59,404 nucleotides of DNA from Terrimicrobiaceae bacterium. Lineage in GTDB: Bacteria > Verrucomicrobiota > Verrucomicrobiia > Chthoniobacterales > Terrimicrobiaceae. The stretch covers positions 1 through 59,404 of the forward strand of contig JBIIPZ010000018.1 of the NCBI GenBank assembly GCA_044342325.1, in the 5' to 3' direction. The notes below the pieces were generated by a model. That model did not search any database, was not told the DNA's origin, and saw only the letters and a program-made list of their open reading frames with translations. This document shows positions 38,611 to 53,867 of the stretch, piece by piece. Numbering within the stretch: the first letter of the stretch is position 1; each line of letters begins with the position of its first letter. Both the position numbers and the translations under genes were made by a program.

Positions 38611-39933
38611 TCAGGCCGCAGCCATCGAGGCGGCACGCGCGAAGCGGGCGAGAGTGCGCTCCTTGCCAAGCACCACAAACATTTCATAAAGGCCGGGGCC
38701 AACCGAGCGACCGCTTACAGCAACGCGGGCAGGATGAACCAACTCGCCGGTCTTCACTCCCAAGGCCGTTGCCGTTTCCTTTAACGCGGCCTCCAGTGAA
38801 GCATGCGACCAATCCTCTACCTTCGCCAGGGCAGAAATCAATGCCTGCAGACGGCCAACTGCGCCCGCTTTTTTCAAACTTTTTTCGACAGCCTCGGGAT
38901 CAAAAGCGAACTCCTCCGTGAAGAGGAATCCGATCCAGTCAGGCACATCGCTGAGGTGCTTAACCTTCGGTTTCACAATCGTGAGCGCCGCCAGAAGCGC
39001 CGCCTCCGAACCGTAGGCAATGCCCGCTTTTTCCACGAAAGGCTTCGCCAATTCCACAAAACGGTCGAAGCCCATCGAGAGGATATGCTGACCGTTCAGC
39101 CAAAAACATTTATCAAGATCGAAGATGGCGTTGCGGCGATTGATTTTATCGATGTCGAAAAGCGCTAGGATTTCCTCCATGGTGAGCTTCTCACGATTCT
39201 CGCCGGGAGACCATCCGAGCAGGCAGAGATAATTCGCCACCGCCTCGGGAGCGTATCCGTGCTCCATGAAGTAGGTAATGCTCGAACCGCCATCGCGCTT
39301 ACTCAGCTTTTTGCCCTCGTGATTCAGGATGAGGGGAATGTGGCCGAAGACCGGTGGCTTCTCGCCGAGCGCATTGTAGAGCTCGATGTGCTTGGGCGTG
39401 TTCGAAAGGTGATCCTCGCCTCGTATCACATGCGTGAGCTTCATTTCAATGTCGTCCACCACATTCACAAAATGGAAAATGAAAGACCCATCCGGACGCC
39501 GAATCGTCATGTCCGGGTGAGTCGCCGGATTTGACATGTCGAACTCAATACGCCCGCAGACCATGTCCTCAAGAACCACCGGCTTGCGCGGGGAGCGAAA
39601 GCGAATCGCACCACCATCCTCATACACATGACCACCCGCCTCCAAGCGGGCGAGGTATTTGGCATAAATCTCGGACCGCTCGCTCTGACGATAAGGACCA
39701 TAATCGCCGCCCATGTCCGGACCCTCATCCCAATCGAGACCCAGCCATTTCAGCCCATCGTAAATAACCTGATGCGCCTCCGCCGTGTTGCGTTTCTCAT
39801 CCGTGTCTTCAATCCGGAGAATAAATTTCCCTCCATGTCGGCGGGCGTAGAGCCAGTTGAAAAGAGCCGTGCGAGCCCCTCCCACATGAAGATAACCAGT
39901 CGGTGAAGGAGCAAATCGTGTGCGAACAGTCAT
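38611..39933 (-). CDS. gltX: Glutamate--tRNA ligase
   Basis: RTRFAPSPTGYLHVGG, LRIEDTD, HVIRGEDH, KLSKR, anticodon domain. Confidence 0.95.
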   Translation of the reverse strand: MTVRTRFAPSPTGYLHVGGARTALFNWLYARRHGGKFILRIEDTDEKRNTAEAHQVIYDGLKWLGLDWDEGPDMGGDYGPYRQSERSEIYAKYLARLEAGGHVYEDGGAIRFRSPRKPVVLEDMVCGRIEFDMSNPATHPDMTIRRPDGSFIFHFVNVVDDIEMKLTHVIRGEDHLSNTPKHIELYNALGEKPPVFGHIPLILNHEGKKLSKRDGGSSITYFMEHGYAPEAVANYLCLLGWSPGENREKLTMEEILALFDIDKINRRNAIFDLDKCFWLNGQHILSMGFDRFVELAKPFVEKAGIAYGSEAALLAALTIVKPKVKHLSDVPDWIGFLFTEEFAFDPEAVEKSLKKAGAVGRLQALISALAKVEDWSHASLEAALKETATALGVKTGELVHPARVAVSGRSVGPGLYEMFVVLGKERTLARFARAASMAAA

Positions 39934-39997
39934 CCACACACGAAAAGGGATTTCACACGGGAACTCAAGAGAGGAAAAAAGCATCCCGCAGCTGCGA

Positions 39998-40031
39998 ACC
40001 AAAATTTTGAACGATCGTCCAATTTTTTGGT
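39998..40031. repeat. 34-bp palindromic repeat, copy 1
   Basis: ACCAAAATTTTGAACGATCGTCCAATTTTTTGGT, 35 bp upstream of the PaaX-like start. Confidence 0.9.
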
Positions 40032-40066
40032 TTGCGCGTCCGGCACCGAATGCTACTCCACGCGGC

Positions 40067-40828
40067 ATGAAGCCAAAGACGGAGTTGTTTCTCTATACCT
40101 TGATGTGGGGCCTGAACATCATGGCGCGACCCACATTTCGCTCGATGGACCAATCTTTCGAAGGCTGGGCCTGGAGGCACGGACTCTTGAGACGGATTCA
40201 TCGCCTCGAGAACGAGGGTCTTATTTCACTCGATGAGAGCGTCGGAGAAAAAACAATCACCCTGACGCAAAAGGGAAAACTCCTCGCCCTCGGCGGCTTC
40301 GACACCGACGCGCTGTGGAACTGCAAATGGGACGGTAAGTGGAGGATCATCACCTTCGATCTCCCCGAGTCGCAACGCAAAGCCAGGCACGATCTCAGGC
40401 TCACCCTGCGGCACCAAAACTTCGGTTGCCTCCAACGCAGCATCTGGATCACCCCCCATCAACTGGATGCGAGCCTTCGTCAAAAAGGACTCCAGCTTAA
40501 AAGCCAAAAAGGATTCGCCATCATCGAAGGCGTATTTCTTGGAGACGCAGGTAACGAATCCATCGTCAAAAGCGCATGGGACTTCGCAAAGATCAACAAA
40601 CTCTACACGCGCCACGCTGAACTCCTCAAAATCGCCCCCAAACAAAAATGCACCGAGGCGGAGTTCAACGAATGGGCATCCGAGGAATTGAAACTCTGGC
40701 GCGAAATCCTGCACAGAGACCCGTTCCTCCCCCTGCAACTTCTTCCCAAAGGCTACAAAGGCATCAAAGCCCGGGATGAAAGACTGAAAGTGCTCGGCAC
40801 CCTCAAAAAACTCTTCATAGAAAAGTAG
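40067..40828 (+). CDS. PaaX-family protein: wHTH, Cas2-like central domain and PaaX C-terminal domain
   Basis: IHRLENEGLI...ITLTQKG (wHTH); WDGKWRIITFDLPE...R..LR..L....FGCLQRSIWITP (Cas2-like); AWDF..IN..Y and DPFLPLQLLP..YKG (PaaX_C). Confidence 0.85.
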   Translation: MKPKTELFLYTLMWGLNIMARPTFRSMDQSFEGWAWRHGLLRRIHRLENEGLISLDESVGEKTITLTQKGKLLALGGFDTDALWNCKWDGKWRIITFDLPESQRKARHDLRLTLRHQNFGCLQRSIWITPHQLDASLRQKGLQLKSQKGFAIIEGVFLGDAGNESIVKSAWDFAKINKLYTRHAELLKIAPKQKCTEAEFNEWASEELKLWREILHRDPFLPLQLLPKGYKGIKARDERLKVLGTLKKLFIEK

Positions 40829-40891
40829 AGCCTCTTCCCTGCACTCAGGAATCCGCCCCTACCTTACAGCCACTCCAGTTACCAAGCATGA

Positions 40892-40925
40892 ACCAAAAAT
40901 TTGAACGATCGTCCAAATTTTTGGT
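40892..40925. repeat. 34-bp palindromic repeat, copy 2
   Basis: ACCAAAAATTTGAACGATCGTCCAAATTTTTGGT. Confidence 0.9.
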
Positions 40926-41002
40926 CGCCCTGGAATTGTTATCTGGTCTGCATCTGAAGGGAAATATGCGGTTTTTTTGAGACTTGGTTACGGTTTTTAA
41001 TA

Positions 41003-41036
41003 ACCAACTTTTTGGACGATCGTCCAAATTTTTGGT
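41003..41036. repeat. 34-bp palindromic repeat, copy 3
   Basis: ACCAACTTTTTGGACGATCGTCCAAATTTTTGGT; starts 111 bp after copy 2. Confidence 0.9.
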
Positions 41037-41074
41037 CGTGACGATGGGAGCGGCGCAGGCTTTGGGTGCGGCGG

Positions 41075-41962
41075 TTAATTTGTTTCGAAGTGGTCCCAGC
41101 CTCCGGGCCAGTTGGGGGGGGCGGGTTGAGGGGGCGTGAGGGTGCCGATGGGAGTAAGGCGGGTTTTTGGGAAGGCGGTGGGCCAGCTTTTTTGAAGGAG
41201 AGGAGCTTTTGAGGGGGGGATGGCGAGGAGGAGTTCGTAGTCTTCGCCGTCGGAGAGGGCGGATTCGATGTCGGATCCTTTGCGGCGGGGGATGGACTCG
41301 CGGTTGACTTCAAATCCGCATCCGCTGGCTCTGGCGAGGCGGGGGAGGTCGGTGCCGAGTCCATCGCTGATATCCATAATCGCAGAGGGATGGATATTTT
41401 TCGCGAGCCATTGGCCTTCTTTGAGCCGGGGGATGAAGTTGAGGTGGTGGCCTGCGATGGAGCCGCCGAGTCGTCCTGTGACGAAGAGCAGGTCGCCTGG
41501 CTTTCCGCCGGAGCGCGTGAGCAGGTGCTTGGAGTCGATGTGTCCGGTGAGCATGACCGAGACGGCTATGCCTTGTTTTTGGCGGGACATTTCGCCGCCG
41601 GCGATGGTGACGCCAAAGCGGCGGGCGGCGCGGCCAAGTCCACGGTAGAATTTTTTCCAATAGGAAGAATCGAGGTCGGGGGGCGAAAAGAAGGTGATGA
41701 GGGCTTGGTCAGGTGTGCCTCCCATGGCGGCGATATCGCTCAGAGGACGGCAGAGCGCCTTCCAACCGACTTTGGCGGGATCATGTGAACGGAGAAAATG
41801 AACATCCTCTGCGATGCAATCCGTTTTGAGCAGAATAAGCGTGCCGGGTTTTCCACACTTGATGGCGGCGCAGTCGTCCCCCGGGCCGAGCGGTTGATCT
41901 TGCGGAACGGGCACGAGGCGCAGGAGTTCGTGGAGCAGTTTGTCCTCGGCGCAGAGTTTCAT
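41075..41962 (-). CDS. thiL: Thiamine-monophosphate kinase
   Basis: GPGDDCA, KTD...DVHF, LSDIAAMGG, DISDGL, GEDYELL. Confidence 0.93.
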   Translation of the reverse strand: MKLCAEDKLLHELLRLVPVPQDQPLGPGDDCAAIKCGKPGTLILLKTDCIAEDVHFLRSHDPAKVGWKALCRPLSDIAAMGGTPDQALITFFSPPDLDSSYWKKFYRGLGRAARRFGVTIAGGEMSRQKQGIAVSVMLTGHIDSKHLLTRSGGKPGDLLFVTGRLGGSIAGHHLNFIPRLKEGQWLAKNIHPSAIMDISDGLGTDLPRLARASGCGFEVNRESIPRRKGSDIESALSDGEDYELLLAIPPSKAPLLQKSWPTAFPKTRLTPIGTLTPPQPAPPNWPGGWDHFETN

Positions 41963-42744
41963 TTCATGAGGTCGGGCCACTGGAGTGTGCCGTAAATACT
42001 GAGTCCGTTGAAGGCGGCATGCAGGAGTATGGGAGCCCAGAGCGAGCCTGTCTTCTCATACAAAAGTGAGAGGCCCACAGCCAGAATGACCAATCCGGCA
42101 AGCGATGGGATGTGTCCATGGATGAGAGCAAACAATATGGAGGTGACGGCAATGGCCACAAACCTTCCGCCGGTCTGCCTGAGAAATCCGTAGAGGCATC
42201 CTCGAAAGATGAGTTCCTCGGTGAGGGGCGCTGCAACGACGGCTATTAAAATGACAGAGAGGCGATCGCGGAGGCTCTGATGTTCGATCAGGAAGGAGAC
42301 AATCGGCTGGGGTTCGGTTTGAGGTCCAGACAAGGAATATCCGATCCACTGTGCTGCGTAGATCGGCGGCAGGAGTAGAGCCAGAGCCAAGACCACAGCT
42401 ACGAGTCCATGACGCCAGGAAGTCCAGCGCAGCCCGAATGCCTCGATGGGGTTTATGTTTCGAAAAACAAGAAATCCGACGACGAAGAGAATGATCGATG
42501 CGTAGAGCCCGAGCGCGGACTCGATGGCCTTCAGGTCGATCCGGCCAGGAGGGCCTGTGAAGGAGGGAATAGCCATCAAAAGGAAAAAAAGCACGACGCC
42601 TGCTGTGAGCAGGGATTCCGGCCATTTCCAAACTTGCGTGGGGAAGGAATCCCCATGTGCCAAAGCCGACCTCGCGGCTCGCGAAGCCACCTTCAGGTAG
42701 ATGAGCCCGAGGAGGAGCAGGATGGCAATTTTCAGAGACTCCAT
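41959..42744 (-). CDS. CPBP-family (CAAX/Abi) intramembrane metalloprotease
   Basis: APLTEELIFRG, FALIH, LYEKTGSLWAPILLHAAFN. Confidence 0.88.
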   Translation of the reverse strand: MESLKIAILLLLGLIYLKVASRAARSALAHGDSFPTQVWKWPESLLTAGVVLFFLLMAIPSFTGPPGRIDLKAIESALGLYASIILFVVGFLVFRNINPIEAFGLRWTSWRHGLVAVVLALALLLPPIYAAQWIGYSLSGPQTEPQPIVSFLIEHQSLRDRLSVILIAVVAAPLTEELIFRGCLYGFLRQTGGRFVAIAVTSILFALIHGHIPSLAGLVILAVGLSLLYEKTGSLWAPILLHAAFNGLSIYGTLQWPDLMK

Positions 42745-52556: not shown

Positions 52557-53723
52557 ATGCGCGATCTTTTTCTTTGGTTTGTGGCAGGCGAGGAGAGTGG
52601 CGATGCACGCGCTGTGGAGGTCATGCAAGCCATCAAAGCGCAACACCCGTCCGTGATCTTCGGAGGCGCTGGCGGCAACGCCATGCAGAAGTTGTGCGAA
52701 CAGCAATTCGACAACTGGGTGCAGCAAGCGGCTGTAACCGGTTTGTGGGATGTTTTGAAAAACTACGGCTACTTCAGGCAAAAGTTCCACGCGATGCTGG
52801 CCGCCATCCGCGAAAAAAAACCAGACGCTGTCGTGCTCGTCGATTATCCCGGCTTCAACCTTCGCCTCGCGCGAACACTCAGAAATACCGGCTACCAAGG
52901 CAAAATTCTCTACTACATTAGCCCCCAGGTCTGGGCATGGAACCGGGGGCGCATCCCGAAGATGGCGCGTTTCCTGGATCTCATGATCTGCGTCTTTCCC
53001 TTCGAGGCTCCGATGTATCAGGCCAGCGGACTGCACACCGTCTTCGTAGGACATCCCCTGCTGGAAGCCCTCGCAGCCAAGCGCGGGGGGATCCATCGCG
53101 AACCGAATTTGCTCGGACTTTTTCCAGGCAGCAGGGAACGCGAAGTGAAACGGAATTTTCCAGTGATGCTCGAGGCGGCTCGTTTGGTGGCCGAGAAAAT
53201 GCCAGGCATCCGCTTCGAAGCCTCGGCCGCAGGCAGCGCACGCGCCGAAAGCATGCGCAAGTTGGCCGCCGGATTTCCCGTCGAAATCCGCGAGGGTAAC
53301 GCCCACGAACTAATGCAACGCGCCACGGCAGGCATCGTCTGCTCCGGAACAGCAACGCTGGAGGCTGCCTTTTTTGGCCTACCCTACTGCCTTATCTACA
53401 AAACAGCCTGGCTCACATTCGAAATCGGCAAACGGCTTGTAGATGTCAACGCGCTGGGAATCGTCAATATCCTGAACAACTACCGCCTGAACCCTCCCGA
53501 AAATCCGGCCCTACCTGCCAAGCCCGCTCCCCATCTCGTTCGGGAATTCATCCAAAACGACGCCGCACCGGAAGCCCTCGCCAAAGAATCCCTCCGTCTC
53601 CTACAAAGCGAATCCACCCGCGAAAAACTCCGCTCCCAACTCACCACCATCACCTCCCTGCTCAAAGCCGAAGGCGCCAGCGAACGAAGCGCAACCACCC
53701 TGCTCCGCAGCCTACAGGCTTAA
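52557..53723 (+). CDS. lpxB: Lipid-A-disaccharide synthase
   Basis: VAGEESGD, VDYPGFN, YYISPQVWAW, FVGHPL, PGSR, SGTATLE. Confidence 0.95.
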   Translation: MRDLFLWFVAGEESGDARAVEVMQAIKAQHPSVIFGGAGGNAMQKLCEQQFDNWVQQAAVTGLWDVLKNYGYFRQKFHAMLAAIREKKPDAVVLVDYPGFNLRLARTLRNTGYQGKILYYISPQVWAWNRGRIPKMARFLDLMICVFPFEAPMYQASGLHTVFVGHPLLEALAAKRGGIHREPNLLGLFPGSREREVKRNFPVMLEAARLVAEKMPGIRFEASAAGSARAESMRKLAAGFPVEIREGNAHELMQRATAGIVCSGTATLEAAFFGLPYCLIYKTAWLTFEIGKRLVDVNALGIVNILNNYRLNPPENPALPAKPAPHLVREFIQNDAAPEALAKESLRLLQSESTREKLRSQLTTITSLLKAEGASERSATTLLRSLQA

Positions 53724-53756
53724 CCAAAAAAATGAACGATCGTTCATTTTTTTGGT
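53723..53756. repeat. 34-bp palindromic repeat, copy 4 (perfect palindrome)
   Basis: ACCAAAAAAATGAACGATCGTTCATTTTTTTGGT; begins within the lpxB stop codon. Confidence 0.9.
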
Positions 53757-53833: not shown

Positions 53834-53867
53834 ACCAAAAATTTGGACGATCGTCCAAATTTTTGGT
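53834..53867. repeat. 34-bp palindromic repeat, copy 5 (perfect; extends to 38 bp, 53832-53869)
   Basis: ACCAAAAATTTGGACGATCGTCCAAATTTTTGGT; starts 111 bp after copy 4. Confidence 0.9.

Follow-up and report, generated by a model that had tools for sequence, protein, structure and literature searches.

In integron attC cassettes and Acinetobacter pdif modules, the recombinase (IntI or XerCD) is not part of the cassette but is encoded elsewhere, and the sites are independent of the protein that the cassette carries. Rickettsia palindromic elements, for which we know of no partner gene, are found in frame in housekeeping genes, as are some repetitive extragenic palindromic (REP) sequences. The REP/REPIN-RAYT systems consist of a single-copy gene flanked by the palindromic repeat, with other copies dispersed extragenically, as described in the available text of Bertels and Rainey (2011, PMC3116915). 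Here we analyze a 34-bp palindrome and the PaaX-superfamily gene that it flanks in a 59,404-nt contig (JBIIPZ010000018.1, positions 1 to 59,404, referred to as the window) of the Terrimicrobiaceae assembly GCA_044342325.1 (Verrucomicrobiota). A preliminary description of the window had proposed that the gene and the palindrome form a RAYT/REP analogue built on a winged helix-Cas2 protein. In our analysis the best explanation, and one that we regard as probable, is a self-flanked cassette encoding a reader of its own palindrome, with REP-like solo sites elsewhere in the genome.

The locus shares with the REP/REPIN-RAYT systems a single-copy flanked gene with dispersed extragenic palindromes, common doublets, largely vertical inheritance within the genus and a repeat type paired with the gene lineage (features of RAYT systems as given in the available text of PMC3116915). 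It differs in that the protein has a PaaX/Cas2 fold and is not a Y1/HUH transposase, and in that the palindromes are perfect over 34-40 bp and occur in tens of copies, compared to imperfect repeats in hundreds of copies. To our knowledge, no transposition chemistry has been described for a PaaX/Cas2-type fold. Like attC and pdif cassettes, the gene is bounded by palindromic, recombination-type sites, a cassette-less relative keeps one site and the DNA between two sites is lost in doublet-to-singlet changes; unlike in those cassettes, the only factor that tracks the sites is the protein encoded inside. The in-frame palindrome in alaS of a sister lineage (+13 residues) is reminiscent of the Rickettsia palindromic elements, which are longer than the palindromes studied here, and of intragenic REPs, whereas none of the 20 copies in the genome of the window interrupts a Pfam-matched coding part.

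The palindrome and its co-occurrence with the gene

The genome that holds the window (designated G000; the window is its contig C27) has a size of 2.93 Mb in 78 contigs, a completeness of 86% and a G+C content of 56.5%. The gene (40067..40828, + strand) encodes 253 aa with an N-terminal winged helix, a Cas2-fold middle domain (residues ~88-159, with D98 in the motif FDLPE) and PaaX_C. An alternative longer frame begins with GTG at 39920; the start was taken at 40067 because homologues begin at MKPKTE. The 34-bp consensus palindrome is ACCAAAAATTTGGACGATCGTCCAAATTTTTGGT. Its three copies at the locus, to which no strand is assigned, lie where the preliminary description had placed them. The upstream copy (39998..40031, 3 mismatches) is the left boundary of the cassette and ends 35 bp before the ATG; it is perfect in the related genome G442 and has 1 mismatch in G001. 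The first downstream copy (40892..40925, 1 mismatch) is located 63 bp past the stop codon. The second downstream copy (41003..41036, 3 mismatches) is the right boundary, and its inner stem and T-run scan as an intrinsic terminator. The two downstream copies are separated by a unique 77-bp spacer (40926..41002), unlike the other inter-palindrome spacers, and have a pitch of 111 bp. This pitch is found twice in the window. Between the convergent genes lpxB and rapA, a solo copy of a variant type (ACCAAAAAAATGAACGATCGTTCATTTTTTTGGT, 53723..53756), itself a perfect palindrome with 6 differences from the consensus, is 111 bp away from a perfect solo copy (53834..53867) in the same intergenic region. 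The variant type is the one that flanks the homologue in G015.

The prediction that further copies are dispersed in the genome was borne out by a mismatch-tolerant count, which found 20 copies in G000 (19 with ≤3 mismatches, 20 with ≤6 mismatches, 12 of them perfect). About 17 of the copies are solo, chiefly between convergent genes. The reversed control pattern had 0 matches in G000, and 100 dinucleotide-preserving shuffles gave 0 chance matches to the consensus. Conservation is limited to the palindrome: the flanks of the G000 copies agree only to about cgA...Tcg, and the inter-palindrome spacers have no sequence in common with one another. The spacer on contig C19 contains a copy of another dispersed repeat. 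This second repeat family of G000 (~110-150 bp, ~73-76% identity; C19:8100-8253, C42:48385-48547, C53:22051-22157, C12:69351-69463 and C19:18084-18201) has one copy between the C19 palindromes, and a relative of it adjoins a palindrome in G007 and G001 (L027, L041).

Co-occurrence was counted in 41 genomes of the genus with the core TGRMCGATCGKYCA. Of the 15 gene-positive genomes, 13 have at least five cores, as do 3 of the 26 genomes without the gene (Fisher p = 2.7e-6; related genomes are not independent), and 23 of these 26 have two or fewer. The gene-positive exceptions are G449 and G440, whose own core is outside the motif. In other lineages, the palindrome type proper to the complete genome G225 was counted 7 times there, twice beside the gene and five times as a solo copy. 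G274 likewise has 7 copies, with 3 on the contig of the gene and 2 of those beside it, and G312 has 3; G259, G420 and G141, with other paralogues, have none. No gene other than the one between the palindromes tracks each palindrome type.

Flanking and joint change of palindrome and protein

The palindromes at the gene ends are conserved. Among the homologue loci of the genus, a palindrome is found at the upstream end in 6/6 and at the downstream end in 5/5 where that end is on the contig; the homologue genes of G437 and G440 are likewise flanked. In the phylum, a homologue is found in 21 of 401 genomes (E ≤1e-20), with at most three per genome. A long palindrome common to both sides is present at 14 of the 30 phylum loci and a palindrome on one side at 7, and 9 have none; the control windows at the locus edges contain a palindrome in 2/60. 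The phylum palindromes have lineage-specific sequences, many of them centered on CGATCG.

The palindrome type follows the protein lineage. Within the genus, ACCAAAAATTTGGACGATCGTCCAAATTTTTGGT is kept at 90-97% protein identity. G024 (85% protein identity) has ACAAAAAATTTGGACGATCGTCCAAATTTTTTGT, G015 (69%) has ACCAAAAAAATGAACGATCGTTCATTTTTTTGGT, G012 and G437 (54%) have the ...TTGGCCGATCGGCCAA... type and G440 has the ...TTGTCCGATCGGACAA... type. The bases beside CGATCG are GGA at ≥85% protein identity, GAA at 69%, GGC at 54% and GTC in G440, and changes of type always hit both arms together. G274 and G312, which belong to different families, carry an identical 38-nt palindrome at both gene ends, with the gene much diverged and the outer flanks unrelated. 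The covariation of repeat and protein for which the preliminary description had suggested looking is thus present, and its proposal of a cognate pair is supported by conserved flanking, joint lineage change and co-occurrence.

The palindrome is also more constrained than its surroundings. At sites shared between G000 and G001, G007, G435 or G442, it is nearly always identical at 34/34 positions, compared to 69-98% identity in the adjacent 150 bp. Summed over 43 rows, which include duplicate rows from overlapping loci and one paralogous match (L137), the identity is 97.8% for the palindrome and 90.7% for the 150-bp flanks. For example, the copy on C18 is 34/34 with flanks at 75-78% and that on C68 is 34/34 with flanks at 69%. 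Given the layout, the way in which site and protein change together, the co-occurrence and the sequence constraint, it is very likely that the protein binds the palindrome.

Domain structure and relatives of the protein

The 253-aa protein is a member of the PaaX superfamily, with both domains above the Pfam gathering scores: PaaX_M (PF20803; 7.8e-20, 71.2 bits, cut-off 24) and PaaX_C (PF08223; 2e-6, 28.5 bits, cut-off 22). The PaaX equivalog model TIGR02277 gives 53.5 bits (cut-off 264.55), and the protein is not PaaX proper. The Cas2 models are below their cut-offs (Pfam CRISPR_Cas2 14.3 bits, cut-off 23.8, E 0.047; TIGR01573 16.6 bits, cut-off 24.5). Y1_Tnp of Pfam has no match in the protein. 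A sequence search found 77 homologues. A 35-sequence profile reached 397 clusters (50% identity) at E ≤1e-30, 3,616 at 1e-10 and 7,174 at 0.001, the looser cut-offs reaching into the wider PaaX superfamily. The AlphaFold model (predicted local distance difference test (pLDDT) 82, predicted template-modeling score (pTM) 0.70) has a helical winged-helix N-terminal part, a beta-alpha-beta-beta-alpha-beta unit at residues 92-155 and a helical C-terminal domain. The top Foldseek matches are E. coli PaaX (8a39, 1e-9), Rv0674 (3kfw, 1.6e-7) and 3l09, followed by many Cas2 chains (probability ~1.0 over ~85 columns). The domain architecture in the preliminary description is therefore confirmed by Pfam and by the fold model.

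The protein shares its domain order and fold with PaaX, the phenylacetyl-CoA-responsive repressor of E. coli W (8a39), and with 3kfw (Rv0674) and 3l09, which together are its best sequence and fold matches. It differs from E. coli PaaX at D98, Q123 and Y230, where the printed alignment has S/E, A and W in PaaX. Unlike PaaX, the cassette has long, perfect palindromes as its sites, which lie at either end of the gene and are dispersed as well; the TIGR02277 score is below cut-off, and paaA and paaC were not found in G000.

The middle domain has the ferredoxin-like beta-alpha-beta-beta-alpha-beta fold of Cas2/VapD-type nucleases, and both its FD Asp and its Q-S-V-aromatic strand have aligned counterparts in E. 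faecalis Cas2. In the alignment of 35 sequences, D98 of FDLPE never varies. Among the query and 148 cluster representatives, the conserved residues are D98 (147/149), R107 (149/149), Q123 (148/149), S125 (148/149) and Y230 (134/141). D98 aligns with the FD Asp of the E. faecalis Cas2 chain 5xvn_E in a HMMER alignment with an E value of only 0.52, in which LLMFDMPTD...GFIMHQFSVY of Cas2 is matched to LvlFDlPes...GfGcLQrSvW of the family; the alignment of this Asp with that of Cas2, suggested earlier, is thereby upheld. In Cas2, the beta-1 Asp is a metal ligand. HMMER alignments show no Asp at this place in E. coli PaaX (LLLSE--GLD) and Rv0674 (LIVTSIGTD). Since D98 and the Q-S-V-aromatic strand have their match in Cas2 and the Asp is missing from both PaaX proteins, the family is a PaaX relative that retained Cas2 hallmarks lost by PaaX. 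Unlike in Cas2, a winged helix precedes the domain and PaaX_C follows it in one polypeptide. Cas1, PaaA and PaaC were not found in the 86%-complete genome and the window contains no clustered regularly interspaced short palindromic repeat (CRISPR) array, in agreement with the preliminary description.

Gain, loss and movement

The site between gltX and thiL was compared among relatives, as had been suggested for finding an empty site. The cassette is present in G000, G001, G004, G023, G024, G442 and G015. G443 has one palindrome, whose left flank is that of copy 1 and whose right flank is that of copy 3. G007 and G017 have a left half palindrome, broken at the center, followed by ~20-30 bp, and the distant G013 has neither palindrome nor gene (~60 bp). 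The three gene-negative, palindrome-rich exceptions of the genus (G443, G007 and G017) all carry these footprints. The comparison yielded one palindrome in G443, halves in G007 and G017 and an empty site in G013; a clean palindrome-only insertion was not found in G000's family. The whole- and half-palindrome footprints point to events at the palindrome center. The cassette of the G437/G012 type is found at a different locus, where G000 has an empty site (C66, with 145 bp between 76163 and 76309), and that of G440 is at yet another locus.

Doublets and singlets differ between genomes with exact boundaries. There are two copies on C19 in G000 and one in G007; two on C3 in G000, G007 and G442 and one in G435; and two at C39:63536 in G007 and one in G000. 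A palindrome is also found at several rearrangement junctions between G000 and G001, G007 or G442 (C16, C40 and C68). Candidates for clean empty/filled solo sites at C47, C40, C12 and C67 were rejected, as the genomes differ there by indels or replacements of 130-385 bp in which the palindrome is included; no clean boundary and no target duplication was seen at any of the four. Compared with C67:10980-11150 of G000, C9 of G435 (L142 ~1262-1545) has ~230 extra bp with a palindrome right behind the apparent 3' end of a tRNA gene.

In the sister lineage G274, a 39-nt palindrome is inserted in frame in alaS (L104 1495-1541, contig C23) and adds 13 residues (VTHKLTIVSLCVT) that are missing from AlaRS of G312, G259 and G000. 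As copies of sister lineages are inserted into coding sequence, the palindromes behave as REP-like mobile DNA tied to the protein family. We consider it fairly likely, by comparison of these sites, that the module is a unit of gain and loss whose palindromes are or were mobile. Two solo palindromes of G225 also lie close to or inside coding regions: one (L098 1501-1534, C1:1589753) is inside an 812-aa family-2 glycosyl hydrolase open reading frame (ORF), between Pfam-matched domains, and the other (L100 1501-1534, C1:3391407) precedes the portion of a gltX-type gene that Pfam matches. The G000 cassette also adjoins gltX, which may be a coincidence.

An array of eight palindromes at 177-bp spacing in G437 was considered as CRISPR-like and rejected, because it is a plain tandem repeat with 94% matches and no unique spacers. 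It lies on C5 at ~72.4-73.8 kb (L112 1925-3286) and has a 177-bp unit repeated 7.7 times, with one G437-type palindrome per unit, as in a satellite-like amplification. In the same locus, a 42-bp tandem repeat (L112 4795-5201, 9.7 copies, 96% matches) continues up to where the fetched sequence ends.

Four public runs were searched, all in the form of contigs, and the runs that contain the cassette are lake-water metagenomes. The contigs break at palindromes. No contig in the four runs skips the cassette, with one ambiguous joint in X3 (40925 to 41006). A contig of 152 nt from an RNA library maps to 40683-40832, which is not proof of transcription. The metagenome depth at the palindrome bins 40881-40941 and 41003-41063 is ~35-40x the gene baseline (X3 381 vs 10; X5 2686 vs 67), which fits a multi-copy repeat in those lake communities.

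Proposed mechanism and alternative explanations

We propose the following model for the cassette. Like PaaX and Cas2, the protein (winged helix, Cas2 fold and PaaX_C) would most likely form a dimer, which would read both arms of its own 34-40-bp CGATCG-centered palindrome. The site 35 bp before the start codon is a likely autoregulation site, with one or two further sites placed just behind the stop codon. The site-gene-site unit would be gained and lost as a whole, with the points of break or exchange within the palindromes, and the solo copies remain letter-perfect across species.

Several results weigh against this model. The gene-less G007, G017 and G443 keep 13-25 palindrome cores, and G007 (96% complete) has no homologue and 21 copies, 14 of them perfect; therefore the repeats are maintained in perfect form, at least for some time, where the gene is missing. 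Within the 8-genome group, the tree of gltX gives no resolution. The expectation that the palindrome would be scarce in gene-less relatives thus held for 23 of 26 genomes and failed for these three. The suggested check of homologue flanking came out in a similar way, with palindromes on both sides (14/30) or one side (7/30) clearly above the controls and 9/30 loci without a palindrome at the threshold used. Cas2 matches at the sequence level are weak (E 0.047 to 0.52). A search for a sigma-70-like promoter near the upstream palindrome found none, which leaves autoregulation a proposal. In the repeat family of G000, neither a clean insertion of the palindrome by itself nor a target duplication was found. 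Replication slippage can cause deletions between close repeats with no dedicated enzyme, and the same footprints could result from slippage or from host enzymes that process hairpins. Use by the host could explain the conservation of the palindromes, given their two-way-terminator look and the convergent orientation of 9 of the 16 occupied regions. Finally, the ~20 palindrome copies are low compared to classical REPs. Most of the refuting checks named in the preliminary description came out in its favor, and its reading as an analogue of RAYT/REP is partly supported: the cognate pair and the dispersed copies speak for it, while the low copy number, the gene-less, palindrome-rich relatives and the missing clean palindrome-only insertions speak against its strong form.

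The rival that survives best, and that we nevertheless judge unlikely, is a plain transcription factor that regulates itself and a small regulon through operators that arose or were selected in place; nothing would be mobile, and the Cas2 fold would serve only for dimerization or ligand binding, as in PaaX. Membership in the PaaX superfamily, the upstream site 35 bp before the ATG, the small number of sites (~20) and their near-perfect identity at orthologous places are all what such a regulator would show. The placement of the copies in G000, taken from crude ORF calls with most neighbors confirmed by Pfam, is mixed. Four copies in three divergent intergenic regions are in promoter-bearing positions, as operators would be. 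The dispersed copies are mostly at gene 3' ends, however: 12 copies in nine regions are between convergent genes, where no promoter is expected, and the other four are in four tandem intergenic regions. Convergent regions account for 9/16 of the occupied regions compared to 20% of intergenic regions overall (p = 0.002 on these crude calls). None of the 20 copies (0/20) interrupts a Pfam-matched coding part, and three overlap an ORF call at its 5' end, which may have been drawn too long. The genes beside the palindromes have no common theme, and 12 identical 34-mers are unlike diverged operators. The sister palindrome in frame within alaS, the cassettes of three lineages at three loci, each with an empty site elsewhere, and the patchy spread (21/401 phylum genomes, with at most three matches, presumed paralogues, per genome) also argue against a plain regulator.

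It is quite improbable that the palindromes are two-way terminators or mRNA-end hairpins of the host, kept by host selection, that bracket the PaaX-like gene by chance. In support of a terminator, the inner stem TTTGGAC-GATC-GTCCAAA (7 pairs) followed by T5 was picked up by a terminator scan at 41011-41028, the whole palindrome as RNA has a folding energy of -19.5 kcal/mol, the copies are enriched at convergent gene ends and those in gene-less G007 are perfect. Terminators, though, conserve structure and not all 34 letters including the loop. The T-run is absent in the sister palindromes of G225 and G274 and its polarity is reversed in G437 and G440, and these families retain the gene-flanking layout; therefore termination is at most a use specific to the G000 lineage. 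The tracking of the protein lineage by the palindrome type and the 23/26 gene-negative genomes with ≤2 cores also disagree with a host function that is independent of the gene.

That the palindromes are classical REPs or miniature inverted-repeat transposable elements moved by a RAYT/IS200-type Y1 or other transposase encoded elsewhere, with the PaaX-like gene a passive neighbor, can practically be dismissed. G000 does have three Y1_Tnp-family genes, and its repeats resemble REPINs, as given in the available text of PMC3116915, in being palindromic and extragenic and in often forming doublets. However, no palindrome is within 1.5 kb of any of the three genes, Y1_Tnp is found in 38/41 genus genomes regardless of palindromes, including genomes with 0 cores, and throughout the phylum the PaaX-like gene is flanked by palindromes that differ in sequence from lineage to lineage. 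The preliminary description was thus right not to tie the repeats to a RAYT/IS200 element elsewhere. The three matches in G000 are at C70:85171-85503, C52:26097-26354 and C9:58623-58883, in open frames of 285-364 aa; some Y1_Tnp copies of the genus sit in frames of more than 1,000 aa.

Within the model of a self-flanked palindrome reader, the role of the protein in movement is a separate question. A direct part of the protein in cutting or moving DNA is a tentative idea that we hold to be possible but rather doubtful; its basis is the retained Cas2-type residues and the two footprints broken at or near the palindrome center. In the more specific form, which appears unlikely, the Cas2-fold domain would be an active metal-dependent DNA-cutting or strand-transfer module at the center of the palindrome read by the winged helices, and the cassette and inter-palindrome DNA would move by excision and integration at palindromes.

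Neighboring genes and database searches

The cassette is located between two host genes on the - strand, both supported by Pfam, as the preliminary description had them. The left gene (38611..39933), divergent from the cassette, encodes a gltX-type class I Glu/Gln tRNA synthetase (tRNA-synt_1c 2.7e-79, Anticodon_2 5.3e-35). The right gene (41075..41980), convergent with the cassette gene, is a thiL-type AIR synthase-related gene (AIRS 1.4e-22 and AIRS_C). Tandem arrays are absent from the window. PADLOC gave weak Cas2 matches only, and PHROGs gave no match. The Rfam matches are only chance miRNA-like hairpins far under threshold. The plasmid collection contained only actinobacterial PaaX-family matches of ≤32% identity, and the phage collection contained none.

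Significance

We found no paper that links PaaX with Cas2 or with palindromes, or that describes a PaaX-like module, in a search that left subscription journals largely outside; the combination was likewise presented as undescribed in the preliminary description. A 2026 survey of the paa pathway (PMC13186573) does not mention palindromes, Cas2 or orphan PaaX. If the protein reads the palindromes, then ~400 protein clusters (50% identity, E ≤1e-30) annotated as PaaX regulators would be misnamed and would represent a separate, self-contained module of a protein and its site. REP/RAYT-like behavior on an unrelated, Cas2-type fold that retains the Cas2 Asp makes two old questions testable: how short palindromic repeats spread and stay uniform in bacterial genomes, and which function the precursors of Cas2 had before CRISPR arose. 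The Verrucomicrobiota case, with full-length PaaX_C-bearing proteins from freshwater, contributes whole- and half-palindrome footprints where the cassette is missing. Should the protein also cut DNA at its sites, it would define a new class of mobile element and recombinase, with no relation to the HUH, DDE, tyrosine or serine enzymes. It would then be a free-living Cas2 relative that recognizes palindromic repeats, which would bear on the origin of CRISPR repeats and of the adaptation module.

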